In this document: one piece after another, positions 329-32,200 of the stretch
Numbering within the stretch: position 1 is the first letter of the stretch
How the letters are laid out: each line of letters starts with the position of its first letter
IMG/VR virus record: IMGVR_UViG_3300030433_002535
Location: 1 to 54,229 of that record
Source: a virus
Taxonomy: Duplodnaviria; Caudoviricetes
Direction: 5' to 3' (one strand)
DNA: 54,229 bases
Translations under genes and position numbers: made by a program
Notes under the pieces: model-generated
Seen by the model: the letters and a program-made list of their open reading frames with translations, nothing else
Told to the model about the DNA's origin: nothing
Database searches by the model: none

Positions 329-928
329 ATGGCCCTGAATGAGGCGTGGAACGTGCTAAAAAGCGGCAATATGCCCCCTCCTAGCCCTCCATACGACCCA
401 AATGACCCAGATAACCCCGAAAATGACGATACGGTGATGGATAACTCGCGAAATTACTGGATAGACTCGTCTAAGTGCCCTTCTTGCGAGCAACCGAGGC
501 TTGGACGAGACAATACTACGTCATCCTACTTCAATAACCCCTCAACGCCTTGTTCGACGCCCGGATGCCCGGAAAATCCCCAAACAGTCCGAGGAGATGA
601 GTGGCTCGGCAACAATTACCCACATCGAAGAACTCCTCAGCCGTCTGCTGAGATTACAGAAGACGACGCACCTGCATGGGAGAAGTATTTGGAAGATTTG
701 CTACGAAGGAGGAAGTATCGTAGACTTGCGGGGCAACTACACGAGGCCACACGAGGTTTGGACCCGAAAACATTAGATGTATTGAGGAATTTGCCCCCAC
801 TGATGGGCAAGAAGGACCTGCTACCACCCGAAAACACGCCTGCTACCAAAGGACCTGACTATGAGAAGTACCGCGAACGTCAAAATGCGATGCGTAGATA
901 TATGAGAGACAGATTCAGAAAAGATTGA
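329..928 (+). CDS. Hypothetical protein with N-terminal ALNEAWNVLKS tag and a CxxC...CxxxxC zinc-binding motif
   Basis: 199-aa ORF starting MALNEAWNVLKS; contains CPSCEQ...CSTPGC. Confidence 0.75.
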   Translation: MALNEAWNVLKSGNMPPPSPPYDPNDPDNPENDDTVMDNSRNYWIDSSKCPSCEQPRLGRDNTTSSYFNNPSTPCSTPGCPENPQTVRGDEWLGNNYPHRRTPQPSAEITEDDAPAWEKYLEDLLRRRKYRRLAGQLHEATRGLDPKTLDVLRNLPPLMGKKDLLPPENTPATKGPDYEKYRERQNAMRRYMRDRFRKD

Positions 929-1427: not shown

Positions 1428-1627
1428 TGGGCAAAGCGGATGCCCCTAACTACCGAAGAGCCACTACTGGGAAGAAGTGCGGCAATTGCAAGGCTTGGGA
1501 CTCAAGCACCACATCCGACCCCATGACTGGCTACTGCAAGATGTATGACTTCAACTGCCATGCAGACTACACTTGCGATGCATGGACCCCAATGACCATG
1601 AAGAAGATGGTCGGAGTGGTACGATGA
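1427..1627 (+). CDS. Small Cys-rich protein with HiPIP-like Cys spacing
   Basis: ATG at 1427 overlaps the upstream stop (TGATG). Sequence NYR...KKCGNCKAW...GYCKMYDF..CHADYTCDAW. Confidence 0.65.
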   Translation: MGKADAPNYRRATTGKKCGNCKAWDSSTTSDPMTGYCKMYDFNCHADYTCDAWTPMTMKKMVGVVR

Positions 1628-2199
1628 CCGCGCTAGAGGAAGCATGGCTAGTGCTGAAGGCTGGTGCACCTCCACCTGCTTGGACTCGACGTGAAAATCA
1701 ATTTGACATACCCGAGGAGTCGAGGGGTACAGAATGGGACCACGGAACAACAATAGAAACCAATCCCGCCTTGGACAGAATGAGTGACGGCAAAGGGGCT
1801 TTCCTCTCCAGTCCGTATGACAAACTAGGAGAAGAACTGCGCCACCCTTCCCACTACTCCAAAGATGACTACCTTGAACCTAGCCCTCATGGAGGGGTCC
1901 GAAGGTACCGGACGAGCCCGAAAAGGCGAAGAGCGATAAAAGTGGCCCCAAGGCCCGCTGTTGGAAGGGGGTCTTCGTCGGTTTTCGACGATGATAAAAT
2001 GACAACAGACGAACCTGACACTAACAATGTAGGTATGCCTTGGTCTTTATCAGAAGAGTACCCGACTCGTGGAGACATCGCATTTGCTGTAGCGGGCGAC
2101 AACGTTCGGAGGTACAAGGCAGGAGAAAGGAATCTGCCTTCCAGTTCGGAAGTGGCTGCCAATTGGGAAGACCCTCGTAGTCAACGCTCGAAACAATAA
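1624..2199 (+). CDS. Hypothetical protein with N-terminal ALEEAWLVLKA tag
   Basis: ATG at 1624 overlaps the upstream stop (ATGA) and places the tag at the N-terminus (MTALEEAWLVLKA). The rest is low-complexity and probably disordered. Confidence 0.7.
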   Translation: MTALEEAWLVLKAGAPPPAWTRRENQFDIPEESRGTEWDHGTTIETNPALDRMSDGKGAFLSSPYDKLGEELRHPSHYSKDDYLEPSPHGGVRRYRTSPKRRRAIKVAPRPAVGRGSSSVFDDDKMTTDEPDTNNVGMPWSLSEEYPTRGDIAFAVAGDNVRRYKAGERNLPSSSEVAANWEDPRSQRSKQ

Positions 2200-2229
2200 T
2201 CTCTTAGGTTGACCCCTACTGCGACGTGT

Positions 2230-2676
2230 GTGGCCCTAGAGGACGCTTGGAACCTCCTTAAGTCACTCTGTCCTTGGTGTGAGCAGTTGTCTACTACCAG
2301 AGATGAAGCGGGTAACATAGTGTGCACCACCCCCGGTTGTGGGTACCAAGGCCCTGCTGACACAAGCCAAGTCAGCCTGCCCACTATCAGGACTGAAACC
2401 ACCTACGGCCCTGAAAAAGATGAGACTGACGATGAGTTCATGCGAAATAGATATGGGCCCTCGCCAGAATTCAAAGCACCAGATTTCAAGGCAAACATGC
2501 CTGAGAAGATACGTGAGAAGATGCAGGCTGAGCCAAATGCTGGGGAGATATGCCCTCAGTGCGATTCGATGAATGTCAAGCACACTCACACTCAACAGAC
2601 TCGGTCTGCTGACGAGCCGGAGACCAAGTTCTACCAATGCAATGACTGTGGAAAACCGTTCAGGAGTTACGCCTGA
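2230..2676 (+). CDS. tfs: Archaeal transcription factor S (TFS)/TFIIS-like transcript cleavage factor with N-terminal tag
   Basis: C-terminal zinc ribbon CPQC...QQTRSADEPETKFYQCNDC carries the diagnostic QTRSADEP acidic hairpin. N-terminal ribbon CPWC...CTTPGC. GTG at 2230 gives (M)ALEDAWNLLKS. Confidence 0.9.
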   Translation: MALEDAWNLLKSLCPWCEQLSTTRDEAGNIVCTTPGCGYQGPADTSQVSLPTIRTETTYGPEKDETDDEFMRNRYGPSPEFKAPDFKANMPEKIREKMQAEPNAGEICPQCDSMNVKHTHTQQTRSADEPETKFYQCNDCGKPFRSYA

Positions 2677-5600
2677 TGCAAAGCAAAGATTGGTGGAACG
2701 TCCTCAAGCGGCGAAAAGACGACGATGACGAGGACCATGGTCAGTATGACAGGATGGACGTCCCGTCTGAGTTCGGTCCTGCAGCAGATGAGAGTGAACA
2801 GGACGAGGAGAAGGCAGAAGACGCTTCTATGACCATGGCAGACATGGTTAATCTAGATGCTCTCGAAGAATTAGGGGTTCACACTGAGAATATCGCCCAC
2901 CCTTTTGACGGCGGAGAGCCATACGATGACACTGCTTTGGCTAACTCCATGAAGCAATGGGTCGACAATGGGATGGTGAGGGAGGGCGAGGAACTTCCGG
3001 GTAATATCAAGGATATACTCCTGTCAGTGTTCCTCCTAGGCACTTCTAATCTCAAGGGAGTGGACTCACTAGGGCGTGCTTATGGAGGTTCTGACAAGTT
3101 CGGTAGGGGAAGGGACGTCATGGCTCTCAAGGACTTCTTGAGGCTCACCACCGAGTTATACGCCAAAGACCCAGACTCGGGAGAACTGGTCCTGCGCACT
3201 AATAGGAGAATCGGAGAGGCCCAAGACAGGCTTGATGAGGCTATACGGCAGAGAGCGGAGGACGAGAGTTCCGTCCCGGAACGCCAGATTGAGATGCTCG
3301 AATTCGACCTGAGTCAGGCTCGAGAGGCCGTCGATGCGCAGATTGCAAGGAGGGATAAGTTGAAGGAAGACGCAGAGAAGTCCCTCAATGACCTCGTAGG
3401 GCAACTAGGTGGACGGTTCTCAGAACCTGCCATGCTAAGCCTGATGGCGAAGTACTGGGCACAGTACGTCCACGGCGACGACTGGCTCATGGAAGGGCTC
3501 CAAGGCAAGGAATACTTCGATGCAGAGGCGTGGCAGGAGCACAATGATGCGCTCGTCGAGCAATTGAAACTGGTAATGTCACTACAGGACGAAGACGCAA
3601 TCCAGAGAGTGCGAGCATCGCTTGACGAGCACAAGGAGAGCAAGTACAAGATGGGCAGTGAGGAGTTCAAGAAGGAGAGGATGAGAAAGAGCCGACTCTT
3701 CTCCTCATTGCAATCGATATACGCTGACATGTGGAGGGACATATTCAATCCGATACTGACTTGGAACCAACGACAGCAGGGAGAGAGGCTGATAGCGAGG
3801 GCCCATGATGTCATAGAGAGCGGAAACCTGCCTAATTTCTGGAATACCGACCTAGATACCATATACGGAGTCGAATCTGATAAGGGGCGCCCGCATACTT
3901 ACTCCTCCTACAACCCAGAGTTGTTCAACCCCCAGCATTACGAAGCAGGTGGTCCGCTCTCGGAGGAGATTCTGTACTCCGAGACTGCCGCTGATGCTGT
4001 ACGAAAACTCATGGAGCGGTTTCCGACTATGCAGGGCTGCCATGCCACTACAGACCTCCTAAATCGATTGGAAAGGGGCGCCGAGTCGAAGAACACCCAA
4101 GTGAAGGAGTGGTTGGAGCACATACGCCACCCTGCCACTCTCGACAATGTGATAGGCACGTCCCAGACCTACCAAGGCCATTTATCCGGGCTCTCTCATG
4201 GCCATATATGCCCTGAGTGCCAGAATGGCAACCACGACCACTTCCTCAAGGACGATGCTTCTCCATTCCAGCCTCGCTTGCTCAATCCCAATAGCGACCA
4301 GCAAGCCTCGAAACTAGCAGGTGCTCCTTTCAGCCAGTCAGAGGGAGCCATGAGGGTCATACGAGCAGTCAATGAGAAGAGGGAGACGTACCGGGAATTG
4401 GTGAAGCAGAGCGAGAAACTAAAGCGTGAAGCAGAGAAACTCTACGCTCAGGGGGATGAACAGGGGGCTATTGCGAAGAGAATGGAATTCGACCGAGTCA
4501 GGACATCGCTCTTGTCTAGGGACCAACTCCATGCAATGGCGGCTGAGCCACCCCCGGAAGGCACTGTGACATTGACAGACAGCGAAGGCAACGAAGTCCC
4601 CATGGACTTCGTCCGCATACCTTCCTTTGAGTCATTCGAGGATGAGGCTCTCGAAGCAGCAGCACAATCAGGAGAACTAGCCACTCCTTCAGGATACGCT
4701 GACATTGACCCCGATACTGGACTCATTCGCGATATCGTACTAGGGGCTAAGCAGAAGGGGAAAACCAGACCATCGATTCTCCGCAACGCAGTAGGCCTCG
4801 AAAGGGACATCAATGACATAATGATGAGAGTAAGAGACCCAGAGGGGGAAGAGGTCGAACCCATCAGTTCCGAGTTGTGGTCCATACAGAGAGACAAAGG
4901 AGATAGGCTGCCGGGCACGGAGGACAGGGAACGGCAACTCGCCAGAGCGCATTCCCACTTAGGTGAGAGAGCAGGCCATTCCTTGGATTACACTCCTCAA
5001 GTGGCTGAGTTGCAGAGCACTTGGGCATTCATCAAAGAGCGCATGGATTCCTTGCGAGGATTGAGAGAAGCAGTCAGCAAGGGAGAGAGCCCGAACACCG
5101 AAGGCTCATTCATCCATGACTGGGACGATGCACTCAGGCAATGGACGATGAGCAAGCGGACAGGTGAGATAGACCACTATGACATCTTTGCTAGACTGAA
5201 GACATTGGAGGAGGCGGATAGCGACAACGAGAAACTATCAAAACTCGCCAAGGAGACGGGTATGAAGACCAACGCTCTCAAACAGAGCCTTCGAGAGCCT
5301 CTGCAATTCCACCGTGAGTTGGCTTATCTGATACATGACTTGAGCACGAGGACCTCGATGCCCCCGAGGGCTTGGAAGGAGAACCAGCAAAGACTCGGAC
5401 GTGACGAAGACATGCCTCTAGGCAAGTTCGACAGCAGCATGCAGGGCATGGACGTTCAGAGAGAAGCAGGCATGCAGGCACCAACGAGAGAGCGAGTCCA
5501 CTCTAGTCAAAATATAGACCCTTTGCTCCGTTTCGTCTATGAGACAAAGGAGAACAACCGCAGTAAGACGGTCATGCAGGAGAAGACTGTTGTGAAAGAC

Positions 5601-8600
5601 GGCAAGAAGCAAACCATAGAAGTGCCTGTTGTAGTGCCTTGGTCTTGGCAAGGCGGTGCGATTCCTGCTGATGACAGAAAAAGGACTTGGACGCAAAGGG
5701 ACCCAGAGGGGGCTATCCCGATGGGAAGGCGCACACTGGCAGCCGCCGATGTCATAGACCCCGAAACAGGAGGGAGATTGCTTCTGAATGAGACTCTCCT
5801 GCGCGACTATCAGACTCGCAATTTACGAATGGGGCCGAAGGATAGAAAGACCCCAGAGGGCAAAGGAGATTTTCCACCTGTCGTTTTGCACCCCCCTCAT
5901 GTCAGGAAGAACAAGAAGGCCCTCGGGTACAATGCAGATATCGAGAATGCGATTGAGGCTAATGTCAATATGCACGTCAACGCTCTTTCGCTCAGAACTC
6001 ACAATAACTACGGGCAACCAGCAGCAGAGCAGATTGGCTACGTGCAGCCTTTTGAAATCTCACCATATTGGGCAGTAGCGCTGCAATACGGCTTCCCTCA
6101 GCACATGATGTCCGATGAAGACGGTACTACTTTCCATGGAGAGGGTGGCTGGCCGATTGACTCCGAAGGCAACCCTGATTACAGCAGGAGGGACGCATTC
6201 CTCAAGATATTCGATTTCGCCATGAGAGGCGGCAGCCTGAGTCAGTATTACTCTCGGGTGAGCCCAGAGACCGGAGAGTTAGAGAGGCTACCCACTATGG
6301 ATGTGTTGAGCCAATGGACCGACTCCAAGGGTATGCCTGTCATCATACCACTCCTCTTGTCTGGCATAATGAATCACATTATGGGCAACAACACGATAGA
6401 GAAGTGGGAGAACACATTCTTACCGGCTGAGGCTGAGGGGAACGTGCCGAGAGGGGAGGATAGCGCGTGGCGTGCTCAGTTCCCACACAAAGCCAACCTG
6501 TATGACGCATTGAAGAAAGACTTGTTGGATTGGGTCGTCAATCCCGAGGCCCATCTTAGGAAACTACAAGCGCAAATGGGAGTGAAGATAGGAGAAGAGA
6601 CTGTCTCTGGTGATGACTTCGTCCCCGGCACCTTATCGATTCAAAGGAACGAGCAGACTAATAGAAACCCGACTGGGGGATTCGAGAGGTGTCGACATTG
6701 CAATAAAGACGGATACATCAATTACGACACTCTAGTAACGAGGGGGATGGCACAAGGCAGCATAGACCCCATGGCTGGTCAAGAGGATAAGGTGGCAGGC
6801 GTGGAGAAGATGCTCGAAGACGGTATCGCAAAAGTATGGGGAGACCAGAATGACTGGAGAGAGCAGTACAAGGCAGAGGCTCCCCATCTGAACAGGCCTG
6901 CCGCGAACGTGCATATCACAGGGGTGCGCTTCACTTGTCCCGATTGTGACGGTACTGGACTGTGTGGAGGGCATCACCCTGAGCGCAACCAAGGGACTGA
7001 ACTACCAGACAACCTGTCTCACATATATTCTGGACTGCTCGATAAGGCCCATGACTATCGGACCGCCGATGCTGCGATGGCGACTAGCCTGATGTCTCCC
7101 GGCCCTACTTACATCCTAGGCGAGACGATGGAGGATTTCTTCGCGAGAAACCCAGAGTTAGACCCTTCGCTGTCTGATGACATCGATAGCAAGTACTGGA
7201 TGTCCTCATACTTCCAATCCATGGGTCACGGAGAGCACCAATCTTCATTCTTCGGCACAGGTGAGATGAGTTTCAGAGAGGCAATCGAGGCTGCGATAGC
7301 AGGGCATTCTGCGCACGAGGCTGATAAGATTCGTTCTGCCGATTTCACAAAGAGGGGGGAGGAATTCGGTCAGAGGTTCCGAAAGCCCGAGCCAGAGAGC
7401 GAGGAAAGCAAGGAGGTCTTGGAAATACAGCATCAATTGGAGCGAATCAATGAGAAGATGCACGAATTCTCAGAGAGGGATTACACCCATCGTGAGATGA
7501 CGAGGCGAAACGCCCAAGGGACTTTGAAGACTGTCAAGAAAAAAGGAAAACCACCTGTGTGGTCAAAGGACCCGGAGAACGTAGGAGGGCCATTGAGCCA
7601 AGCAGAGCAAGAAAATTTCATGAAATTGAGGCATCTCAGGGACAGGCTGCGTCGTAGATTGCACTACATCAACGCTGGTGACAGTGCTGAGACCGCTGCG
7701 GAAAAAGCAGAGCAAGAGCATGCTGAGAGACTATCCCGATTCCAAGAGCAACCAGAAGTCGAACCTGTAGAGCGGAAGAGCAGAGTGTACGAGAAAGGGC
7801 CGGGAGTCTACCACGGGGCAGATTCCAATGGCGTTCTCTATCGATGGGCGGCTGATAAGAACAAGGTGTTTGGCACTGCAAGTCAATGGGGGCTCGTAGG
7901 CGACAGCCCTCATATGCTGCAATACGACGACGCTACGATGAAGTACATCGGCCATAAGAAGAAAATGGACGCACTGCAGAGGGAGATGTGGGACCCAGAT
8001 TTACCTGAGAAGGAACTCAGAGAAAAGCAAAAACAGCATGCTAAGATGATGCAAGAAGGAGAGGAGTTGTTCCGAAAAGCCCCATTCCACATCGATTTCG
8101 AGACTCATTTCAATACTGTCAATAGACTCATGGGCATCTTGCGTGACTCCTCACAGAGTGACGAAGAGAAGAACGAAGCCGCTCTACAACTGAGCCTGAT
8201 GCCACCTCTCTCCAGAGTGCTTGTCCAGCATCAAGATGAGAAGAGTGGAAAGATGAAGTACAGTTATCTAGTCTATCCCCGAATCGACGGCGCCACTCCG
8301 GCTGAGGTACTAGGATTCGACTATGTTAGTGACCTCATGGGTGAGGAGTACACAAAGCAGGTAGACTGGTCTGGCAAATTGAGAGAATTGCAGAAACAAG
8401 CCGAACTCCATGGCAGGCTCTCGGAAATGCTCGAGCCAATCCTCGATGTCATGGGTCGTAGCGGTAGGACCAGTGATGACATAGCAAATATGAGTGCAGA
8501 AGAGTTCAAATCCGCTTTGGATGACCTCGGAGTGACAGATAGATACGGTGCTCCAGTCCTAGGAGTGACAGACAGAGGGGGCTATCCCTTGATGTCTAAA

Positions 8601-10448
8601 ATCCAAATCACCGCCCCAGAGCGAAAGTTCATCGACCAATACAGCGTGTACAGGGATATTCTGAATAACGAGAAGTCGACGGAAAAAGAGAAAGAGGATG
8701 CTCAAGAACAACTGGAGATTATGATGAAGCAATACGAAAAGGGCGGAGTCGCAGAAGAGAGGGTTGGTGTGTCATACCACCCGAATCTCGGTTTTGCCAA
8801 GAGCCCCATCGATAAACTGCTCGAGGAATTGGGCTATCGCTTCACTGACAGAGAAGGAACTGGGTCGCAAGCCTACAATCTGGAGCAATACGGAGAGCCA
8901 AGCGCTCTATCAGATTTATGCTATGTGCAAGCCCACCCGATGGATTTCAATGAGATAGAGACTGAGACGGGCAGTTTCACTCCACATAGCCTCATAATGG
9001 CTCTAGCCTCCGCCGCTTTGTATGGCGAAACCGCAGATTTACCGGGCTCCTATGACCGTGAGAGTGGGTGGTCAAACTTCACATACGCACCGAGTGCGGG
9101 TGATGGTGGGTCACTAGACAAGTTGAGAGAGAAAACCAAAGTGGAATTCAACAAGATAGTTCAAGAAATGGCAAAATGGCAGCCCAATACCTTATTGTCA
9201 TTGATGAGGCACGGGGGGCTCACTCACTTAGCAGGGAACCCCGAAGTGAGAAACAACTTGGAGAAAATGGTCAGTGCCACGCACTACAATCTAGATTTAG
9301 GTGGTGCTAGGACAGACCGTGATAGATGGCAAGAAGCCGTTCCCCTCAATAACGTGCATGAGGTAAAAGCGGCAATACGTGACCATGCCCACCATGCCAA
9401 AATGATTAATGATATTATTGAGGAGGTCAACATGCTCAAGCAAGCCAAAGAGAAGCATAGGTCATCATTAGATGAATTGATAGGCAGTGGCGCTGACCAA
9501 GCGCGGATAGCAGCAACGCAGGACGCCTTGGATGTGACCAATGGGCATCTACGCAGACTTAACGATGAACTCAGAGCACTCAGAGGCGACAAGGCTCTAG
9601 AACTTCCCGCGGACAGCGACCCCGGTGTCGATTTCTTATGGGACGATGGCAATCCTTGGACAATCTCCGGCGATAATCTCGTGAAGAACGTACGTTTCGT
9701 AGAAGGAGGATGGGAGAGCGAAGACCAGCAAATGGCCGAACGCGCATCTTTAGATGAACCTGAAGGAATGGTACCACGCTTCTACCAAGAGACTTACACT
9801 GATGCAAACGGTCATTCTCGAGTCCGCTTGGTCCCGAATACCAATTTCGACAAGGAAGTGGAAATGCTAAGTCAAGCAATTGAAGGGGTAGGTAGTACGG
9901 GACTAGGCAGTTTCCCATTCACTCCCGAGTCGTTCCAGAGGTTCCCGATATCAAGATTAGATGAGCAAGAAAGAAGCAGTTACATGAGATATCCCTCTGG
10001 GGTAGTCACCAATGACAAACCTACAGCACCAAGCCGCGTGTACAGCACAACTGGTATAGGACCAAGTACAGTAGTGCCACAGGAAGAGTGGCTAGACCCA
10101 ATCCACGGTGTAGATACTAGACCCCCTCTGCCAGCAGTGGGCAGCATAGTCACTAGAAAGGGAGTAGAGAGGCCATACACAGAGGAAGATAGACTGCAAG
10201 ACCTCAGGGATGCTATAAAAAGAGGGCATGGAACTACGAAATTCGCAGGTGACGGTGATGACATCGAACCAGCCCCGCATCAGGTCATGGACGGCGGTGG
10301 GTACCTCTCTCCTCAACGAGGTTACTTCCACCCTGAGTCAATAGCATCGAGAATGTCTGATGATAGTGAAGACGACATTATAGAAATGAGTTGGAAAACT
10401 GGTGACCCCTTAGAGGATGCCATGAGAATTCTCAAGATTCTTTCATAA
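2676..10448 (+). CDS. Giant (2590 aa) orphan protein, possibly an internal virion/ejection protein
   Basis: Uninterrupted ORF coupled to tfs (TGATG). Has coiled-coil segments, CPEC and CRHCNKDG...CPDCDGTGLC Cys motifs, and tag variants at both ends (DWWNVLKR; GDPLEDAMRILK). Function is inferred. Confidence 0.85.
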   Translation: MQSKDWWNVLKRRKDDDDEDHGQYDRMDVPSEFGPAADESEQDEEKAEDASMTMADMVNLDALEELGVHTENIAHPFDGGEPYDDTALANSMKQWVDNGMVREGEELPGNIKDILLSVFLLGTSNLKGVDSLGRAYGGSDKFGRGRDVMALKDFLRLTTELYAKDPDSGELVLRTNRRIGEAQDRLDEAIRQRAEDESSVPERQIEMLEFDLSQAREAVDAQIARRDKLKEDAEKSLNDLVGQLGGRFSEPAMLSLMAKYWAQYVHGDDWLMEGLQGKEYFDAEAWQEHNDALVEQLKLVMSLQDEDAIQRVRASLDEHKESKYKMGSEEFKKERMRKSRLFSSLQSIYADMWRDIFNPILTWNQRQQGERLIARAHDVIESGNLPNFWNTDLDTIYGVESDKGRPHTYSSYNPELFNPQHYEAGGPLSEEILYSETAADAVRKLMERFPTMQGCHATTDLLNRLERGAESKNTQVKEWLEHIRHPATLDNVIGTSQTYQGHLSGLSHGHICPECQNGNHDHFLKDDASPFQPRLLNPNSDQQASKLAGAPFSQSEGAMRVIRAVNEKRETYRELVKQSEKLKREAEKLYAQGDEQGAIAKRMEFDRVRTSLLSRDQLHAMAAEPPPEGTVTLTDSEGNEVPMDFVRIPSFESFEDEALEAAAQSGELATPSGYADIDPDTGLIRDIVLGAKQKGKTRPSILRNAVGLERDINDIMMRVRDPEGEEVEPISSELWSIQRDKGDRLPGTEDRERQLARAHSHLGERAGHSLDYTPQVAELQSTWAFIKERMDSLRGLREAVSKGESPNTEGSFIHDWDDALRQWTMSKRTGEIDHYDIFARLKTLEEADSDNEKLSKLAKETGMKTNALKQSLREPLQFHRELAYLIHDLSTRTSMPPRAWKENQQRLGRDEDMPLGKFDSSMQGMDVQREAGMQAPTRERVHSSQNIDPLLRFVYETKENNRSKTVMQEKTVVKDGKKQTIEVPVVVPWSWQGGAIPADDRKRTWTQRDPEGAIPMGRRTLAAADVIDPETGGRLLLNETLLRDYQTRNLRMGPKDRKTPEGKGDFPPVVLHPPHVRKNKKALGYNADIENAIEANVNMHVNALSLRTHNNYGQPAAEQIGYVQPFEISPYWAVALQYGFPQHMMSDEDGTTFHGEGGWPIDSEGNPDYSRRDAFLKIFDFAMRGGSLSQYYSRVSPETGELERLPTMDVLSQWTDSKGMPVIIPLLLSGIMNHIMGNNTIEKWENTFLPAEAEGNVPRGEDSAWRAQFPHKANLYDALKKDLLDWVVNPEAHLRKLQAQMGVKIGEETVSGDDFVPGTLSIQRNEQTNRNPTGGFERCRHCNKDGYINYDTLVTRGMAQGSIDPMAGQEDKVAGVEKMLEDGIAKVWGDQNDWREQYKAEAPHLNRPAANVHITGVRFTCPDCDGTGLCGGHHPERNQGTELPDNLSHIYSGLLDKAHDYRTADAAMATSLMSPGPTYILGETMEDFFARNPELDPSLSDDIDSKYWMSSYFQSMGHGEHQSSFFGTGEMSFREAIEAAIAGHSAHEADKIRSADFTKRGEEFGQRFRKPEPESEESKEVLEIQHQLERINEKMHEFSERDYTHREMTRRNAQGTLKTVKKKGKPPVWSKDPENVGGPLSQAEQENFMKLRHLRDRLRRRLHYINAGDSAETAAEKAEQEHAERLSRFQEQPEVEPVERKSRVYEKGPGVYHGADSNGVLYRWAADKNKVFGTASQWGLVGDSPHMLQYDDATMKYIGHKKKMDALQREMWDPDLPEKELREKQKQHAKMMQEGEELFRKAPFHIDFETHFNTVNRLMGILRDSSQSDEEKNEAALQLSLMPPLSRVLVQHQDEKSGKMKYSYLVYPRIDGATPAEVLGFDYVSDLMGEEYTKQVDWSGKLRELQKQAELHGRLSEMLEPILDVMGRSGRTSDDIANMSAEEFKSALDDLGVTDRYGAPVLGVTDRGGYPLMSKIQITAPERKFIDQYSVYRDILNNEKSTEKEKEDAQEQLEIMMKQYEKGGVAEERVGVSYHPNLGFAKSPIDKLLEELGYRFTDREGTGSQAYNLEQYGEPSALSDLCYVQAHPMDFNEIETETGSFTPHSLIMALASAALYGETADLPGSYDRESGWSNFTYAPSAGDGGSLDKLREKTKVEFNKIVQEMAKWQPNTLLSLMRHGGLTHLAGNPEVRNNLEKMVSATHYNLDLGGARTDRDRWQEAVPLNNVHEVKAAIRDHAHHAKMINDIIEEVNMLKQAKEKHRSSLDELIGSGADQARIAATQDALDVTNGHLRRLNDELRALRGDKALELPADSDPGVDFLWDDGNPWTISGDNLVKNVRFVEGGWESEDQQMAERASLDEPEGMVPRFYQETYTDANGHSRVRLVPNTNFDKEVEMLSQAIEGVGSTGLGSFPFTPESFQRFPISRLDEQERSSYMRYPSGVVTNDKPTAPSRVYSTTGIGPSTVVPQEEWLDPIHGVDTRPPLPAVGSIVTRKGVERPYTEEDRLQDLRDAIKRGHGTTKFAGDGDDIEPAPHQVMDGGGYLSPQRGYFHPESIASRMSDDSEDDIIEMSWKTGDPLEDAMRILKILS

Positions 10449-18286: not shown

Positions 18287-20176
18287 ATGCAGTTGCCAGA
18301 TGACATAGAAGTCTTTCGCATCGCCTATGGTGATGAGCGTGCAGTCATCAAGTTCATGCTCCGAGAAGGAGCCAATTACGAGGAAATTCACCAAGTCATA
18401 TACGGGGAGGACCCTATCCTCAAAGCCACAAGGGAGGGCGACAGGACTCTCGTTGACACTGAGAGGTACGGGCAGTTGAACTTTCCGGGAGGGCATGGCA
18501 CTAGAGAGAACTACGCAGCGCGTCGAAGGTGGCTGAGGAACCAGCCAGAGTTGTACAACCCGGAGACTAGGCAGTACGAGCATCCTAATGTGGGTGTGGC
18601 CAAGCCCGGCATGTTCGATAGGCTCAAGCGATGGCATAGCACTAGGAGAGCGAACCAGAAACGAGCCGAAGAGAGGCACAAAATCGGTCGGGACTTGTAT
18701 CGAGGTCTAACTCACATACTATCGGACGAGTCAATTACTCACGAGCAATTGATGGAACTTCTCAGTGGTATGAATTGGACTGCTGCAGAGCACGGAGCAG
18801 GCGGGTTCCTCGACGAGGAGACACCTGAGAGAGACCCAGCGACAGACCCCACCCTCACGCAGGCAGTTGCATCAGTCACTGAAGACGCGAAGAAAAAGAA
18901 AAAGGAAAAGGAGAGAACTGGAGAGGGGGGTGAAGAGACAGCAGCACCTGTCCCCGCTGATGGGAGTGAAGGAGGGGTAGACACAGAGGCAGTCGTCGAA
19001 GATGCAATCGAACGTCGAATAGAGGAAGGAGACAGTCCTGCAGAAGCGATAGAAACCGTGCTTTATGCGTTGCACGACCCTGATTATGCAAAGGAGAAGG
19101 GCCTAGAAGGCCATCACTTCGCTTACAACATGGGAGTGCACGGACTCATAGGAGCAGAGAAGGGTGCAGACCCGGACCCAGATTTGGCCCCTCCACCATT
19201 CTGGAATAAGGAGTCCAGAAACTGGCCGCCGATACACGTAGGCGATGATGGTGGGATAATCAGATACAATCCAAATCAAATCCGCGACGAAGAGCCTCCG
19301 TGGATGGAGGCCCTCAGGGAGAGAACAGGTACGAGAGGAAGTGGGAAGCGTGGTGTTGGGGCCATGACTAACCCAACAGTCGCTAGAGTGCTCACTGGTC
19401 ATATGATAGGGCAGGAAGGCGCTTCCTCGCTACTCGCTCCGAAAGAGGACAATAGCATTGACTTCAAAGGGCTCTACAGCGCTTTAGACAGAGCCAAGCA
19501 ACACTTCAAGGGAGACCCGTACAACTTGCGTGAGAGGTACAACATACCCGAAGGCGAGGGCAGGGGCTGGCCTCTCGGAGTGTTTGATAATCAAATGATA
19601 GGGGCCAAGCCATTGCACTGGGTCAAAGACATACTCCCAGCGTGGTTGGATGACCCGAGGATGCTCCAAGAGGGCTACCCGCTCCACCTATTGGGGGTCA
19701 CGCCCGAGAACGCAGGCATTCTCAGAGAGGCGATGGCCAAGGAGACTGCTAGGCTGGAAGAGATTGAGGCAGAGAGGAAGAGGAAGCGCAGAATAGGAGT
19801 AGGGAACTTCAGTGGGCCATCAACCGACGAAGCCGGAGAAGAAAGTGGAGGGACACCGCCCGGAGGGTCACCGCCCGGAGGGTCACCGCCCGGAGGGACA
19901 GCCCAAGTTGACCAAACTAAAATCGCAGATATTGCCGCTGAAGTGGAGGAGGCTTTGGGCGCGGGGCCCCCTGTAGAAGGAGGAGCCATGACCACTTCTC
20001 CGATGTGTGCGTCTTGCGCTCAGCCTGTCCCTCTCACTCATGTTGAGCCTGAGACAGGAGGCCAGATTTGCACAGCGTGTGCTCAAGAGAGAGGCCTCAT
20101 TCAATCCTCAGATACGCAAATGAGCCTAGACCCCTTCAATCTTGCATGGGGGCGCCTCTTGAAGGGGCGTGATTGA
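18287..20176 (+). CDS. Hypothetical protein with C-terminal zinc finger and C-terminal tag
   Basis: 629 aa; DPILKA near the N-terminus; GG[TS]PP repeats; CASC..CTAC; ends IQSSDTQMSLDPFNLAWGRLLKGRD. Confidence 0.78.
   Translation: MQLPDDIEVFRIAYGDERAVIKFMLREGANYEEIHQVIYGEDPILKATREGDRTLVDTERYGQLNFPGGHGTRENYAARRRWLRNQPELYNPETRQYEHPNVGVAKPGMFDRLKRWHSTRRANQKRAEERHKIGRDLYRGLTHILSDESITHEQLMELLSGMNWTAAEHGAGGFLDEETPERDPATDPTLTQAVASVTEDAKKKKKEKERTGEGGEETAAPVPADGSEGGVDTEAVVEDAIERRIEEGDSPAEAIETVLYALHDPDYAKEKGLEGHHFAYNMGVHGLIGAEKGADPDPDLAPPPFWNKESRNWPPIHVGDDGGIIRYNPNQIRDEEPPWMEALRERTGTRGSGKRGVGAMTNPTVARVLTGHMIGQEGASSLLAPKEDNSIDFKGLYSALDRAKQHFKGDPYNLRERYNIPEGEGRGWPLGVFDNQMIGAKPLHWVKDILPAWLDDPRMLQEGYPLHLLGVTPENAGILREAMAKETARLEEIEAERKRKRRIGVGNFSGPSTDEAGEESGGTPPGGSPPGGSPPGGTAQVDQTKIADIAAEVEEALGAGPPVEGGAMTTSPMCASCAQPVPLTHVEPETGGQICTACAQERGLIQSSDTQMSLDPFNLAWGRLLKGRD
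19847..19900 (+). repeat. 15-bp tandem repeat (GGAGGG[AT]CACCGCCC) x3.6 encoding GG[TS]PP
   Basis: Read directly from the sequence. Confidence 0.9.
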
Positions 20177-24843: not shown

Positions 24844-25197
24844 ATGTCGGACCTCATCGTCAAACTAGACCCCATGGTCAGAAAACTAGAAACCAGTATT
24901 TCTGAATTCAAAAGCGCACTCCAGAACAATGACTTGGTCGCTGCTCAGCAGTTCCTCAGGTCGATTGCCCAGACCAGCGATTACCTCTCTGAGGATGTCA
25001 CTTCCATCTACAAATCAGATACCGAGGCAAACAAGGCCGTTGGAGTGAATGACATCTATGCCGGAGGTGTCCCAGTCATGGAATTCAAAGACCAAGGCGC
25101 TATCATCAAGGGTGACAGGCCAGCAGGTTACATAGGCCCCGATGGCATTCAATCTAATTGGCGCCCTCAGCACGGATTCGGTCAGAGGGTAGACTGA
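24844..25197 (+). CDS. Small head-module protein
   Basis: ATG at 24844 lies ~30 nt after GATTAATG (ORF track start 24817); IYKS, ANKA and IIKG sites. Confidence 0.7.
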   Translation: MSDLIVKLDPMVRKLETSISEFKSALQNNDLVAAQQFLRSIAQTSDYLSEDVTSIYKSDTEANKAVGVNDIYAGGVPVMEFKDQGAIIKGDRPAGYIGPDGIQSNWRPQHGFGQRVD

Positions 25198-25553
25198 TGT
25201 CAGACGATGTCAACACACTAGTGGGTGCTCTCATCACCAAGATGGAACGCATGGATAGTGACATAGACATACTCAAAGCGCAGAATGTCATACTCAAGGG
25301 CATGGTCGATAACCCTGAAACCCTGCTAAAGCAGGCTGGGTTCATCAAAGCGACCACTCCTGCTACCGAGGACGTATGGGGAGACCCTCTCAGAGGCGAG
25401 AGGAACGAAGTCATAGAGAAAGCCGCCATCGCCATAGATGGGGTAATGGTCATGCCTGAGTCCAATGCCGATTGGCATGAGATGGACTGGGATGAGATTC
25501 ACGCGATGGCTAATGATGCCGCGCAAGCAGAAGGAAGGCCGGTGGACATATGA
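25197..25553 (+). CDS. Small coiled-coil head protein with scaffold-like C-terminal motif
   Basis: TGATG coupling; ends EMDWDEIHAMA, similar to the protease/scaffold end QMSWDDVHRLA. Confidence 0.75.
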   Translation: MSDDVNTLVGALITKMERMDSDIDILKAQNVILKGMVDNPETLLKQAGFIKATTPATEDVWGDPLRGERNEVIEKAAIAIDGVMVMPESNADWHEMDWDEIHAMANDAAQAEGRPVDI

Positions 25554-26287: not shown

Positions 26288-29200
26288 GTGTCTAGCGAGA
26301 GTCCTCAGCAGTTCTATCTAAGGGCTCGTGAAGACTTCATCAAATCACCCGGACTCAATGAAGCCGCCAATCTCTACTTTGCTGTCCAGAACCTCAATAA
26401 CCATGGAATAACCTATCATGTGGCCCCTTCCACGATACACGCATTCTCCATCCTGAAGAACGAGGATGCCATTGACGGCAGCGAAGGCCCAGAGCCTGTT
26501 GACTTCGGGGGTCCGAATTACGAGACTCCTCAGATGAAGAGGGACAGGAGGCAACTCGCGAGGGAGAAGTCCCAGTTGGTCGCCAGAAAAGCAGGGACCA
26601 AGTATCGGAGGATAGACACTCCCGGCAAGCACCCACCCCTCATGCCAGCCTTCGATGCAGTCAATCTGCCCTTGAGCGATTTCTGGAGATACCAGAATCG
26701 AAACTTGCGTGACCTATGGGAGCATCTGGCGACGGACCCACAAGTCAAGGGCATACCTAATGAGATGGTCGATGCCTTCTACCACTATCGACCTTCTGGA
26801 GAGCACCCACTAGCAAGCATATTCGACGAAGGACTCAATGGAAATCCAAAATGGCATACCCTGATGGACAGGCTCTACACCTCCACGAGCCCTGACAATG
26901 CGGCCACGCTTGACTCGAAGATGAGGAGGCATGACGAGAAGTTCGGCGCCATGGTCGAGTCTGGTGCCTTCTCGAAGGACCGCTCCTACGAGGAGATGTA
27001 TGGCAAGTTCGACGACAACAGCGTCGGCTTGCATGACATGTTCCTGCATGGCCTCAATAGATGGAGGGTGCTCCATGGTCAGAAATATGGGAAGGAAGGT
27101 GACATAGACAGTTATCTGGCCTATCTCAAGATGAGCATGGAAGGCGTCCCCTTAGATGTGATAAACGACACTCTGTTCACGGACGAGGGAAACCTCCGAA
27201 GTGACCACAGCAGGCGTTCCAAGACCGCTATCAAGAATGCTGGTGACCCCTCACAGCAGATGGGGCTCCTTCCACTCCTGCTTGGTCTGGAGAACCTCAG
27301 CATGAAAGACGGCAAGACTGCAGTCAAGTGGTTCATGGATGGAGCGCAGGGTAGTTTCAAAGACGACCCGGAATCTGCCAAATCCACTAGTTTCCTAGAT
27401 GGGCAGAAGGACCCAGAGTCACTTCTCTCTCGAGTATGGAAGAAGCGACTAGGCGCCATCACTTCCGCTATGACTTCTCCTTTGATACAAGCGGGAATAC
27501 AACAACCGCCTACGAGAGCGAAGGACCTAGACCCGAAGAGAGACACCGGGGGGACTAGAAAAAACGACATGAAAGGAGAGAGCATGACGAGGTCCGCTCG
27601 TGACTCAGACTTGTGGCATCGCGCTCTCATGTGGTGCAGGGCGGACAAGGACGGGGTTCACAGGATGGACCGCGGGAAAGGTCCCTCTGTCTTCAATCAG
27701 TTGATGAACAGGTTCGGGATACTCCCCAATGGCTCTGGTCATTACGGCACCTCCCATCCTGAAATCAACGAAAAACTCGTGGACGACTGGTTGCGCAACA
27801 AGGTAGGTGGTGTGACCAAGGAGCAAATAGCGAAACTGAAGGAATGGAGGGAGAAGGTAGAGAAGTACGCCAATAAAGACTGGACGAAGACCGCTTGGGC
27901 TGCACCCTTCTCGGGACCGCTGACCGAAGAGGGAAAGCCGTCATTCGCGAAGGTGTACCATGATGTATTCGCAAGCGAGAGCGGAGGGCACAGCATGTCC
28001 CCCGCAGACATGATGCAGGCCTTCCATGACATGTTCGGTGGACTCTTCACAATGCCACCCCATTACGAGCAGAGCCAGTTGCAAGGTGAGAACAAGAAGA
28101 CCGTTCGTCAAGTTATCTTCGATGAGGATGGTGAGGATAAGAGGAGAGGGGGCTCCGATGACTGGGAGGCTGCTACGCGGCTAATCGGGGAGACCGGACT
28201 CGTGCCTCTCGCTGGTGAGGGTGAGATGGGTGACGAGCGAGTGGGGATGGACTACAGCCCTTGGTTCGGCATGTTCATGCCCAAGGACCGGGACATCATC
28301 AGCAACATGGAGGGCACAGGCTCTCAGTTGTTCCAGAATAGCAGTCTCACCAACTTCGCAGCCCTCCCTAGACTGCCATTCTCCCTCAGGGACTACCACA
28401 ATCAGAAAAGGTCTCTGGGATTGAGGGCTGGTATCAGATTCGGTGACAATCATCAGCATTCTGATAGGAAGATACGGAGTGCCGATGCCGCCCAACTTAG
28501 TTACAACCTCGGTTCCACCTATCCTCACAAGGAAGAGCACGACTTGGGTGAGGCTAACAGGATGACCCACCTGCTCGACCTAGTCATGGGGATGTTTCAC
28601 GAGCACGGCAACTCCCACTCCCTCTACGACATGTTCCAGTACGGCCCAGAGGTGTTCCTCTCAGAGTTGCTCGCTAGGAGAGGAGACCCACTTACCCCAG
28701 ACATATCCTCCCCGCACGGCTCACCCAATCTTGTCACCATAGGCAGATTGCTCGAAGGAGCGGACCTCATGCGTTACATCACCGATAGCGAGACAGGCAC
28801 CGAGAAGATAGCAGATTCTCCTTATGACGTCATGGGCGACCGTCACGCCATCTACTACCATCATGACGATGGTAACTACGCTATGGGGGAGAAGGGCATG
28901 CTACATGGCTTGGAGCCTAACAATGGAAGGTCCGATGCCATACCTCTCAGGCTCGATGAGTTCACTGCCTCGCCCGAGACAGTCCCCATCGAGAGACTCT
29001 TGATACATCCCCATATGAGAATGCGAGCAAATGCGCTCGGTCGTGTAGCGGAATTGCGCTCCATTCTGAGAGATGACGTCACCCTCCCCGAATCTAGGAA
29101 CCCCGGCTTTCATCAAAAGAGGCTCCTAGACACCATACGAGCCGTAGGCAGAAGAGAAGGGTGGGGTCCAGAGCGCCTACAAAAGGAAATCGACATAGTA

Positions 29201-32200
29201 CTAGGAAAGCAAGCCCCAGACGACCCGTCTGTGTTCGACAGGTATGGTGGTTGGGCCATTGCTGATGGAATGGAGGACCATGACAAATACCCCATTCTAG
29301 ATGCGACATCCGATGCCTTGTGGGAAGGTGGCATGGGCAGGCCGTCGCACGCCGAAGGCCCTCTGTCAATGGATGACACTGGGTGGAGTGACATGAATGA
29401 ATACAATTACAGCAAGAACTTCCCTCACTATCTTCTTACTTCCGGTGCCTATCGAAAGTACAGAAAGGCACCTACTCAAAAATCACAGGTGGAAGTCGGT
29501 GACGGGCCCCAGAGAAGTTTCATGGATATGCTGTCGGAGACAGAGTTCGCGGACCCTGAGGAAGACGACGGTGAATCCGGGTACCTGCTTGCACCAGAGC
29601 CCTTCGCGTTGATGTCCAATCACATCGAGAGATTGCGTGATTTCGCCTTGACCTTCGATGAGGACTCAGTGGCTAGGAGGAGAGTGGAAGAGGCCATACG
29701 CCAACAACAGATGATGCAATTTGACCTCGCTTACTCAGATGGCAGTGCCTTCGATGCAAGTGACGCGCAGATAGGCCGCATGGGTCACGCTCACATGCTA
29801 CTGAGGATGGTAGCCGATACGCTGCACCACACTGGAATCGTGGCACAAGCACTCAAGAAGCACCACATAGCACAGGACCAGAATAACGCTGCTCTCTATG
29901 ACGTGCCCAATGATGACTCCATAGCAGCCGAGGCCTACGCCAATCACATGGAACTGCTGCATTTCGCGAATAGCCTCTTGCATCACCCTGACCAGTCTTG
30001 GAGAGAAGCGCTGGCCAAGGAGATGGACAAGATGGGCGAGACTAGCCTCTCACAGCAACTGCGCGAGCCTAGGAGCCAATCGACTTACATATCCCCACAG
30101 ATTCAAGGCGGTTCGTACAACCCAGAGACAGGGGAGTACGAAGTTGCCGATGCTGATTCTGAGGCCTACGAGCGCCTTCTCGGCCCCTTCGCGGACAAGC
30201 AATGGGTGAAGGGGACAGACCTCGCTAGGCACTACATCGAGAATGGCCATCACGGCAGTTTCGATGATGAGGGCAACGTCGAAAGCGATGTTGTCGCACG
30301 TGCTTTGCGGGCACTGAGAACATTGGACAAGTACAACGACACTGACCATGTCGTCGAGAAAATAGAAGATTTGTTTGGGGAGGGAAGCAAATACTTCAGG
30401 GACGACGACGAAAAACTCACCGGGTTCACACTGACTCCCAAGAACAGAACTCGTGATGACTTCAATGCCCTCCTGCACGTTCTCGGAGACATGAGGAGAG
30501 ACAGTGCGAATACGACGAGAGTCAGGAGCGTCTCAGACAACGGCTTCCTCGCTGATTGGGCTCCCTCTACCTCGTATTCCAGTTCTACCGGGTTGAGCAA
30601 AAATGCACGAAGGAGTCGAAATCTAAACATCACCCGAGAACTTTCTCGTTTGCTGCACAACTACGCATGGGACCATGAAGGTGGGCAAGGCAGGCTCACC
30701 ATGACTGAGTCTGACCTGCCAAAAACCGTGCCATTCGGAGGAATGGAAGGCTTAGCACCATTATCTCTATTCTCGTCTGCTACACTCAAGAACAAAGCAT
30801 CAACACCGACTAGGGCTAGCATCGTCCCAACTTACAACGGTGGGTTGCCTCAGATGACATCAGCCGTTGGCATGCCTGCTCACGACAGGCCTAGGGTCCA
30901 CGTAGCGCATAACGTGCTCAGTGGTATAATGGGAGAGGATTTGAGCGCCTTCGCAGGTAGGACGATGGGACCCGAGGCTGGTGATTGGTATGATGCCGAA
31001 GGGGCGAGGACGCAGGCGCAGAGGGCAATGCAGACAATGCCACCGAACGAGACGTTAGGTGATGGCAGTATCATGGCAAGCCTCGATTTGGACTTGGACG
31101 TCCTCACTGACGAAGACCTGCTGCACAAGAAGGACGAAGGGGACCCAGTGCCCATCAAGCCCATGCATCGCATATTCAGCCTCGATGACCTAGAGCATCT
31201 CAGAGGCTTCTCTGGGGATTGGGTAGTCACCTCTTGGCCTGAAGGAGAGCGTGTCATAGTGCACAAGAAAGACAAGAAACTGGTCATCACCAATGGAGGG
31301 GGGAAGAAGGTGACTATACCCAATCAAGTGCGAAAAGACGTGAGAAAGGCACATGACTCCGATTTCATAGTGGATGCCATATGGGACGAGGAGTGCTTGC
31401 ACATCATCGACATCATAAAGATAGCAGATGAGAAAGTGTCAGACGAGCAGACCAAAGACAGAAATCGTTTGTTACGTGCGAAATTTGAGGCTACCGATAA
31501 CGTCTCCATACCAGCACCAATCAACACCAAGAGAACTGACAATGATGGACTGCAACGCGCATATGACGATTTGATGAAGGAGAAGGGAGTCAAGCAGGTC
31601 CTCCTCAGAGACGCAGGGGCTACTTACATGAGAGGGGAAGCGAGACATCCGAAGTGGGTCTTGTGGAGACCAGACAGGACGATTGACGTGAGAGTGGTCT
31701 CATCTTCAGGCGCTCAACACTGCTTGGGAGTAGGCCCTATAGACGAAGAGACGGCCAAGAAGATTGGCAATCGCAGTCAGGAGTACGACGGTGAGCATTA
31801 CATGGATGTCGGCTCACTCTACAATACCAAGGTGGAAGAGGGCGATTACATTACCATAGCAGTGTCCAGTACCTCTGTTTCCACTCGAAGCAAAGAGCAA
31901 GTCTACCAAGTCAACGCCCCTCGCTACCTTGGTCCTTCAGAGAGTCATGCTACTGACAGCATAGAGACCTTAAGAATACTCTCGCCTGTTACAGAGCAGA
32001 ATATACCCCATAAGGTGAGAGTCAACAAAGGCAACGTACTACTCTCATTCCCCCTAGGAGATGTGACGTATGAGACGGAACCACTAGGCCATGCTTTCAT
32101 CATCAAAGCAGTAGATGCGCCATCGGATTACCTAGGACGAATCGCAGAGACTCAGAGACCTTACTGGGGCCCTCTCGCAGCAGTTCTTCTCAGGAGCGAC

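Follow-up and report, generated by a model that had tools for sequence, protein, structure and literature searches.

A virus-encoded TFS homologue with a shared terminal peptide in a magrovirus

Introduction

TFIIS-family transcript-cleavage factors have been described in cells and in those giant eukaryotic viruses that come with a polymerase of their own. Here we describe a TFS-like gene (2230..2676) of a tailed virus (Caudoviricetes), and the short terminal peptide, or tag, that its product shares with other proteins of the same virus. The DNA is IMG/VR record IMGVR_UViG_3300030433_002535, analyzed over its whole length of 54,229 nucleotides and hereafter called the window; the contig is rated ~51% complete and represents half of a magrovirus genome. 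Magroviruses rank with the most abundant viruses in surface ocean waters; both they and their hosts, presumed to be Poseidoniales, are uncultured.

The cellular counterpart is archaeal TFS/TFS1 (TIGR01384), especially that of Poseidoniales. The window protein resembles it in having two four-cysteine ribbons joined by a linker and a C-terminal Q-T-R-x-x-D-E-P hairpin, and in a full-length profile alignment; a long linker (median 60) is likewise found in Poseidoniales TFS. The window protein differs in being virus-encoded, in a linker ~10 residues longer with its own acidic/aromatic stretch, and in sequence (30–37% identity). Moreover, Poseidoniales TFS has 2 residues before the first cysteine in 17 of 18 rows, whereas the viral protein has 13, with an 11-residue N-terminal helix.

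Within this family, Saccharolobus TFS1 depends on its two acidic residues, TFS4 differs in a shorter, three-lysine hairpin, and an exchange of the hairpin tips exchanges the activities, as given in the available part of PMC5715097; the preliminary description of the window, which had portrayed TFS4 as a virus-induced inhibitor acting at the same site as TFS, agrees with that text. TFS4 of Saccharolobus solfataricus (7oqy_Y, Foldseek match 39 of the model described below) shares with the window protein the family, presumably the binding site, and a setting of virus–host conflict. However, TFS4 is host-encoded and lacks the acidic pair, its shorter hairpin bearing three lysines, whereas the window protein is viral and its D-E pair is intact. 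According to the accessible text of a 2022 review, the viral RIP and the cellular TFS4 are the only two known direct inhibitors of archaeal RNA polymerase in virus–host conflict (PMC9501531).

Two kinds of viral protein invite comparison. TFIIS of nucleocytoplasmic large DNA viruses (iridovirus, marseillevirus, pithovirus; Rpo30 in vaccinia) is virus-encoded and belongs to the same ribbon family; it gave the best matches among predicted viral structures (ranks 1–25), with 6rfl_S among the solved chains. These matches cover mainly the C-terminal ribbon (53–97 aligned columns in most rows), and the viruses concerned have eukaryotic hosts and their own multisubunit polymerase, which the factor serves; no polymerase domain was found in this virus group. 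The halovirus HCTV-1 encodes a 'TFIIS-type domain-containing protein' (UniProt R4TMF6; gene at L140 1198-1572) with a counterpart in HCTV-5 (L139 1252-1575), likewise a small zinc-ribbon protein of an archaeal tailed virus with a related capsid module. It has a single C-terminal ribbon, with no N-terminal ribbon, D-E hairpin or tag, and PF01096 matches it at 10.9–12.4 bits (cut-off 21) over profile positions 27–39 only.

For the tag, the nearest described system is the capsid targeting sequence of phage T4. The T4 protein Alt, delivered by means of this sequence, modifies the host RNA polymerase. The internal proteins of T4 form a diverse set with only the capsid targeting sequence in common, as the available part of PMC3012670 states, and the tag is similarly a short terminal peptide that is the sole common part of a fast-changing accessory set near head genes. 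The two peptides have no sequence similarity; the tag described here is found on C-termini too, and its carriers include proteins of 2590 and 3040 aa.

Results

The gene product is a complete TFS homologue

The gene and its parts are as follows.

2230..2676, + strand: TFS-like gene, 148 aa; GTG start; TGA stop at 2674-2676 overlapping the ATG of the next gene
2230..2265, + strand: N-terminal tag MALEDAWNLLKS, residues 1-12; predicted short amphipathic helix (helix 3-10 in the AlphaFold2 model)
2269..2355, + strand: N-terminal zinc ribbon; Cys14, Cys17, Cys32 and Cys37, then GYQGP; aligns with Poseidoniales TFS
2356..2550, + strand: linker, 70 residues by length count, from the last Cys of ribbon 1 to the first Cys of ribbon 2
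2422-2460, + strand: virus-specific acidic/aromatic linker stretch E-x3-EFM-x2-RYGP, residues 65-77, conserved in homologues
2551..2649, + strand: C-terminal TFIIS-type zinc ribbon (PF01096), within the last 45 residues; Cys108, 111, 137 and 140
2596-2619, + strand: acidic hairpin QTRSADEP, with D128-E129 at 2611-2616; aligns gap-free with cellular TFS

The product of 2230-2676 is a complete homologue of TFS with both ribbons, beyond a C-terminal ribbon alone. PF01096 matched residues 115–152 (numbered in a 155-aa reading, see below) with an E-value of 5.9e-13 and 48.9 bits against a cut-off of 21; the score was 51.9 bits in a six-frame search. A profile of the viral family, compared with 1.84 billion representative proteins, gave 369 matches at E ≤ 1e-3, and its positions 13–140 align with cellular TFS (e.g. 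P0008 and P0010). In this alignment the ribbons agree column for column, the viral C-P-W-C...C-T-T-P-G-C-G-Y facing the cellular F-C-P-E-C-G...C-x-x-x-x-C-G-Y. Homology of the N-terminal ribbon to that of cellular TFS is thus supported by the profile, by the columns F-C-P-x-C and C-G-Y, and by Foldseek matches over 136–146 columns; Pfam alone did not recognise this ribbon at E ≤ 0.1. All eight cysteines and the D-E pair are retained in 11/11 viral rows, three distant ones included. The best solved sequence match was the ribbon of Thermococcus celer TFS (1qyp, 5e-7), followed by yeast RPA12 and human TFIIS.

An AlphaFold2 model built from a 66-row alignment (mean pLDDT 83.1, pTM 0.37) shows an N-terminal helix, three strands in each ribbon (20-23, 29-32 and 40-42 in the first) and two helices in the linker. 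By their titles, all 50 of the best matches listed in a Foldseek comparison with the PDB are chains of RPA12, RPB9, RPC10, TFIIS, TFS or TFS4, and most of those listed span both ribbons. The identity proposed in the preliminary description, a TFS/TFIIS-family protein with two ribbons and an intact QTRSADEP hairpin, is borne out by the PF01096 match, the family profile alignment, the ribbon columns, the Foldseek matches and the D-E pair retained throughout the viral rows.

The linker measures 70 residues here and 57–115 in the 11 viral rows, compared with 36–53 (median 39) in 31 other archaeal rows and 52–61 in 18 Poseidoniales-like rows, whose median of 60 was given above. The earlier statement that it exceeds that of cellular TFS therefore holds against canonical TFS; against Poseidoniales the excess is only ~10 residues. 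By these counts the long linker is mostly inherited, a trait of Poseidoniales, the likely donor lineage. Its virus-specific stretch contains invariant columns E72, E76, F77, M78, R81, Y82, G83 and P84 (155-aa numbering), a helix is predicted at 67-75 with pLDDT ~90 over the block, and related motifs occur in the distant viral proteins P0007 and P0009.

The start codon and the tag are conserved together

The reading frame as listed runs from a TTG (2209-2676) and gives 155 aa; the GTG at 2230 gives 148 aa. This GTG stands immediately before the tag in 9/9 sequences (the window and L002-L009), with no start codon between it and the first cysteine, and it is the sole possible start in 5 of the 8 sequences that show an upstream stop. 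The five close metagenome homologues (60–89% identity) start MALEDAWNLLK. The tag is therefore translated if the first zinc ligand is, since no alternative start drops the one without losing the other. Both the start at 2230 and the placing of the tag before the first cysteine, as first described, are thereby upheld.

The start, tag, eight cysteines and D-E pair are retained in nine sequences that are 60–99% identical, and distant tagged viral versions (P0007, P0009 and P0016) were found at 30–36% identity. Pairwise dN/dS against four relatives is 0.31–0.50, and by this measure the gene is under purifying selection. A separate observation concerns 2545-2673, the C-terminal ribbon, where dS against the same four relatives is 0.22–0.40 compared with 0.7–1.2 in the rest of the gene; this may be nucleotide-level constraint before the start of the coupled giant gene, or noise from few sites.

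That giant gene follows directly.

2676..10448, + strand: 2590-aa protein, function not assigned; N-terminal tag variant MQSKDWWNVLK and C-terminal tag-like ...PLEDAMRILKILS

The order of the TFS-like gene and the giant gene, with the TGATG overlap, is retained in 6/6 loci that reach that far (L002-L007), and the two genes are probably co-transcribed and translationally coupled. No Pfam family matched the 2590-aa protein.

Poseidoniales TFS proteins are the closest cellular relatives

The best full-length cellular matches are clusters named transcription factor S of Thalassarchaeaceae, Poseidoniales or Thermoplasmatota archaea. In GTDB, taken at one genome per species, 587 of 602 pattern matches were confirmed, by a pattern that favours TFS with this hairpin. 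Among the best 80 of the 587 loci, 30 are named as Poseidoniales or its families and 42 only vaguely as archaea, with 4 from Thermoplasmata, 2 from Thermoproteota and 2 labelled bacteria.

For the tree, 60 rows of 110 columns were used: 11 viral, 45 cellular (110 less near-duplicates at ~85% similarity; locus L082 yielded no sequence) and 4 unnamed database rows, with no outgroup beyond the sample. A branch with support 99/94 sets 30 other TFS rows apart from the viral plus Poseidoniales rows. Within the latter, a 19-row clade (97/87) holds all 11 rows named Poseidoniales by title or NCBI rank together with 8 vaguely named ones, and zero viral rows. On the strength of these alignments and the tree, the nearest cellular relatives are Poseidoniales TFS, and we are highly confident that the viral protein is a TFS homologue of Poseidoniales ancestry.

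Homologues in described viruses are scarce. With the viral protein, Poseidoniales TFS (P0008) or canonical TFS (P0013) as query, tblastn gave no match among 50,697 deposited records of phages and archaeal viruses, a search that weak relatives can escape, since the HCTV-1 ribbon surfaced only by structure. That single ribbon of HCTV-1 and HCTV-5 is the closest counterpart seen in an archaeal virus. In the literature searched, no report was found of a TFS/TFIIS gene in an archaeal virus, or of a full-length TFS in a bacterial virus, although supplementary gene tables may list one; term look-ups in the available parts of PMC5434244, PMC11706807, PMC8651126, PMC10160649 and PMC5867849 likewise returned no TFS gene in an archaeal virus. 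The homology itself is easy to see, as the automatic JGI annotation already labels family members 'RNA polymerase subunit M/TFIIS'. What is new is the setting of this TFS-family member, in a virus with no recognisable polymerase and with a terminal address peptide.

The tag is shared by otherwise unrelated proteins

Besides the TFS-like protein and the 2590-aa protein, the following products carry the tag.

329..928, + strand: tagged protein (MALNEAWNVLKS), 199 aa, function not assigned; N-terminal tag
1624..2199, + strand: tagged protein (MTALEEAWLVLKA), 191 aa from the ATG at 1624, function not assigned; N-terminal tag
18287..20176, + strand: 629-aa protein with C-terminal tag ...FNLAWGRLLKGRD, directly upstream of the large terminase gene
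36754..37152, + strand: tagged protein (MNPLDKSWDVLKM), 132 aa, between head and tail genes
37197..37400, + strand: possible tagged protein (MGSGNLLSTTWQVLKN); start uncertain, the reading frame may begin at 37113

Six copies of a strict form of the motif, W-x-[VLI]-[LI]-K, are present among the window's 37 predicted proteins (17,294 aa), in the reading frames at 329, 1624, 2230, 2676, 36754 and ~37197. All six copies lie within the first 15 residues (binomial P ~1e-9, with the starts at 1624 and 37197 chosen so as to sit near the motif), while shuffled proteins gave a mean of 0.245 matches. The core [AS]-W-x-x-[LV]-L-K is found at either or both termini of at least 8 otherwise unrelated proteins of the window. 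A scan of IMG/VR for the tag DNA also led to a complete relative of 118,155 bases (G003), in which ~10 proteins carry the core (L014-L015, 1-24206). Its double-ended carriers include a 3040-aa protein and a 507-aa protein, and its Nudix hydrolase (PF00293, 1.2e-14; L014:1008-1481) bears the N-terminal tag MALGVAWDFLKM.

A terminal peptide is thus what these otherwise unrelated proteins have in common: the BLASTP similarity of the TFS-like protein to ORF329 and ORF1624 is restricted to 12–14 tag residues. ORF329 was also considered as a TFS paralogue on account of its C-x2-C...C-x4-C pattern, a candidate that was rejected because the similarity is limited to the tag, the ribbon-like parts giving E-values of 1.6–30. 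Between the window and L004/L005/L007, the 12 tag codons show 4 synonymous differences and 1 non-synonymous difference, a pattern indicating selection on the peptide. The strict tag DNA pattern occurs in 0/61 Poseidoniales-order genomes searched.

All tagged genes found share both strand and genome half with the morphogenesis genes, those for packaging, head and tail. At E < 1e-4, tblastn gave no counterpart in G003 for the window's reading frames between 329 and 10448, despite 97% identical capsid proteins, and judged from this comparison the tagged gene set is hypervariable. The tag is very probably a common docking peptide.

The virus is a magrovirus

All long genes of the window are on the + strand and include those for the large terminase, portal, S78 prohead protease (32704-34107), HK97-type capsid protein and tail tube. 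Among deposited viruses, 11/11 matches of the capsid protein are archaeal tailed viruses, the best being haloarchaeal siphoviruses at 33–34% identity. An HNH/homing-endonuclease-like reading frame lies between terminase and portal. The relative G003, whose terminase is 89% identical and whose gene order is alike, encodes a thermosome subunit, PolB (family B polymerase), a clamp-loader-like ATPase, an SNF2 helicase, an ERCC4 nuclease and a Cas4-like nuclease.

In the available part of the report by Philosof et al., magrovirus group A is characterized by a thermosome subunit, an SNF2 helicase and an archaeal replication set, and magroviruses by a homing endonuclease that sits among the structural genes and by a capsid protein that matches haloarchaeal siphoviruses only, at about 33% identity (PMC5434244). 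The window and G003 together show these features, the replication traits being observed in G003 and not in the window itself. Gene content therefore supports the assignment of the virus as a magrovirus, group A-like through G003, in line with the identification first suggested. No PHROGs family matched at E ≤ 1e-4.

Tagged genes have their own upstream motif

A short DNA motif precedes the TFS-like gene.

2200..2216, + strand: conserved 17-nt motif TCTCTTAGSYTRACCCC, its end 13 nt upstream of the start codon; a single exact match in the window

The same motif precedes several tagged genes in L004-L008 and L011, likewise stopping ~13 nt short of the start codon, and a looser form, TTCTTAGCGAAAAGCCCCTCCC, precedes genes of the ORF329 type. 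The motif may serve as promoter of a leaderless or short-leader mRNA; alternatively, it may mark a recombination junction where gene cassettes meet. No GAGGTGA-type ribosome site stands before the TFS-like gene; the structural genes have one.

Discussion

Action on the host polymerase and destination of the protein

The explanation that we consider best overall, at a probability of roughly one half, is that the virus captured a cleavage-competent TFS which acts on the host RNA polymerase and is sent to a destination shared with other viral proteins. The hairpin is of full length and carries D-E in every viral row, unlike that of TFS4, and by the TFS1/TFS4 rule the protein looks like the cleavage-competent kind. 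As to its target, Rpb1 domain 2 and Rpb2 domain 6 were found in 0/5 related virus records (the window and four others, one of them complete), so that the enzyme concerned is most likely that of the host. That the protein would stimulate cleavage on the host polymerase is, from its sequence features, probable.

We propose that the viral TFS acts as cellular TFS does. The N-terminal ribbon would dock by the lobe and jaw of the polymerase, the linker would guide the C-terminal ribbon into the NTP-entry channel, and the two carboxylates would trigger cleavage of backtracked RNA, so that viral transcription would be kept processive. Two purposes suggested earlier fared less well. Competition with inhibitory factors found no support, as a single TFS match, with no further paralogue, was obtained in each of three Poseidoniales genomes examined. 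Aid in transcribing very long genes is a weakened idea, since G003 has giant genes at least as long, its 3040-aa gene among them, but no TFIIS domain.

The second part of the proposal concerns where the protein goes. The 11-residue N-terminal helix would be an address peptide, put on either end of a changeable set of unrelated proteins that includes the TFS, two giant proteins and, in a relative, the Nudix hydrolase. Through it, these proteins would all bind the same viral receptor, most likely within the capsid during assembly, and the TFS would then enter the next cell together with the DNA. By analogy with T4, we give this step as a whole somewhat less than an even chance; that the docking target would be the procapsid, with the TFS delivered alongside the DNA, is offered tentatively. 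The case for virion cargo draws on the presence of the tag on either terminus of unrelated proteins, on the hypervariability of the set, on the strand shared with morphogenesis genes and on the resemblance to T4, from which we infer that the protein may travel in the particle. The same pattern in the sequences would be expected of a peptide that docks proteins to a different viral hub, and the likeness to T4 stays an analogy. The general form of the idea, in which one 11-residue terminal peptide loads an exchangeable protein set (TFS, Nudix hydrolase, double-tagged giants) into the particle for injection with the DNA, is possible but doubtful. Complex prediction that paired residues 1-50 of the TFS-like protein with the capsid protein, with the protease reading frame's C-terminal half and with the reading frame 25158-25553 gave scores of 0.00 and 0.00 against a mark of 0.32 in a run without controls, and these scores speak neither for nor against docking.

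Alternative explanations

T4 late transcription factors bind the sliding clamp through terminal peptides, and the tag might in the same manner dock proteins to an intracellular viral hub, be it the sliding clamp, a chaperonin or the giant proteins, with the TFS made after infection and recruited to a replication–transcription centre. A tag found on either terminus and sometimes on both suits such a generic docking peptide, as does the translational coupling of the TFS gene to a tagged giant gene in all six loci; in the relatives the tagged genes also have their own upstream motif, unlike the structural genes. Candidate hubs exist, since clamp, clamp loader and chaperonin genes are described for magroviruses (PMC5434244, available part) and G003 has a thermosome subunit and a clamp-loader-like ATPase. 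Nevertheless, every tagged gene found lies in the morphogenesis half and none in the replication module of G003, no clamp gene was identified in G003 by Pfam even at E ≤ 1, and the zero count of the strict tag in the Poseidoniales-order genomes means that it is no copy of a host docking motif in that form. We regard hub docking as unlikely, though it is the foremost of the alternatives. An inhibitor or competitor in the NTP-entry channel of the host polymerase, whose linker and N-terminal helices would slow or redirect host transcription in the manner of TFS4, is a less probable case still. The site is a proven target of inhibition (PMC5715097 and PMC9501531, available parts), the conserved acidic/aromatic linker stretch is absent from Poseidoniales TFS and is predicted with high confidence to form a helix, and a plain duplicate seems of little use to a virus whose host already has its own TFS. 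However, inhibition by TFS4 needs loss of the acidic pair and the shorter three-lysine hairpin (as the consulted text of PMC5715097 has it), whereas the viral proteins keep D-E without exception and their hairpin aligns gap-free with that of cleavage-competent TFS.

The TFS could also serve a cryptic viral RNA polymerase lying within the giant proteins (2590, 2127 and >2900 aa), as in giant eukaryotic viruses, whose TFIIS proteins are its best viral structural matches; the coupled 2590-aa protein belongs to no known family, and residues 1-1300 of it gave no usable match in the ESM Atlas. Yet the Rpb1 and Rpb2 Pfam domains were found in none of the five related records, the giants have no D-x-D-G-D (D-x-D-x-D matches only in acidic or low-complexity stretches), and G003 has comparable giants but no TFS, which together leave this reading very improbable. 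A passenger gene without a role, recently taken from the host, would fit the rarity of the gene and its absence from the close complete relative, but it fits neither the retention of start, tag, cysteines and acidic pair across the nine sequences nor the dN/dS values and the distant tagged versions P0007, P0009 and P0016, and we consider it the least credible of all.

Several observations weigh against the explanation that we prefer, a captured TFS acting on the host enzyme and sent to a shared destination. TIGR01384, the equivalog model, scored 41.7 bits against a cut-off of 64.75 over profile positions 53–100 only; the TFS proteins of three Poseidoniales genomes are likewise under this cut-off (61.4, 59.0 and 49.6 bits), which accordingly fails to separate the true TFS of that lineage. 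In the tree the viral rows form one side of a weaker branch (89/71), three of them with long branches, and in this sample the viral proteins stand beside, and are not nested in, the Poseidoniales clade, implying either an old capture or fast-evolving viral copies. Of the host derivation claimed in the preliminary description, shared ancestry with Poseidoniales TFS as nearest relatives holds, whereas descent from within the sampled clade does not; the phylogeny that it called for groups the viral proteins with Poseidoniales at the 99/94 branch and places them outside the 97/87 clade. The gene is, furthermore, rare and dispensable. A TFIIS domain is present in 0/4 other tag-bearing virus records (G003, complete, and three partial ones), and pattern-plus-tblastn scans of IMG/VR with the protein, its alignment, P0016 and P0007 as queries, which rely on few exact peptide patterns, gave no other carrier. 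Just two residues separate the tag from the first zinc ligand, and the tag might obstruct the N-terminal ribbon as it docks on the polymerase. In relatives, the upstream motif and the lack of the ribosome site of late structural genes suggest that the tagged genes may be of another temporal class. Finally, no credible terminal tag copies were found in the structural half of the related halovirus HVTV-1 (50-100 kb), so that virion proteomes of cultured relatives do not apply to the tag.

Implications

A complete and seemingly catalytic copy of the factor in a virus with no recognisable polymerase would mean that the virus adjusts elongation by the host enzyme, beyond initiation and shut-off. 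To the two known direct inhibitors the gene would add a likely positive viral factor acting directly on the polymerase. Being small, soluble and amenable to assays with heterologous archaeal polymerases, the protein additionally offers a rare experimental handle on the uncultured magroviruses. The tag defines an entire class of accessory proteins across these genomes, and should it prove to be a loading signal, it could serve to direct foreign proteins into the particles of archaeal viruses. Should the cargo reading be true, the host RNA polymerase would meet a viral elongation factor from the first minute; the system would be an archaeal counterpart of the T4 internal proteins, and the virus the first without a polymerase to deliver a TFIIS-family factor.

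Other features of the window

Some further features were noted. At the left end of the contig, 64-208 holds five direct copies of a 15-nt unit (ATAACGTCACGACCT-like), several of them also inverted; they precede an AT-rich stretch and the first tagged gene and are candidate binding sites (for packaging, an origin or a regulator). A blastn comparison of the window's first 400 nt, made in search of shared genome ends, gave no match in G003. Untagged neighbours of the tagged genes at this end are a DUF6321 protein (6.8e-19) and a 70-aa Cys-rich protein, at 966-1427 and 1415-1627, and a SAP-domain protein (2.2e-13) lies among the tail genes at 42039-42464.

Residues 1641-1790 of the 2127-aa reading frame 26288-32671 (31208-31658) weakly match the adenylation domain of ATP-dependent DNA ligase (E = 0.01), and also the cap-binding domain of snurportin (E = 0.002). 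The ligase match fits the 'ligase embedded in structural module' of Philosof et al. and would be the C-terminal part of a giant protein in the portal–protease interval. A second shared terminal motif was seen in the 131-aa reading frame 25158-25553 and the protease reading frame 32704-34107, which end in a similar peptide, M/D-W-D-D/E-I/V-H-x-L/M-A; it may be the capsid-binding tail of scaffold-like proteins.

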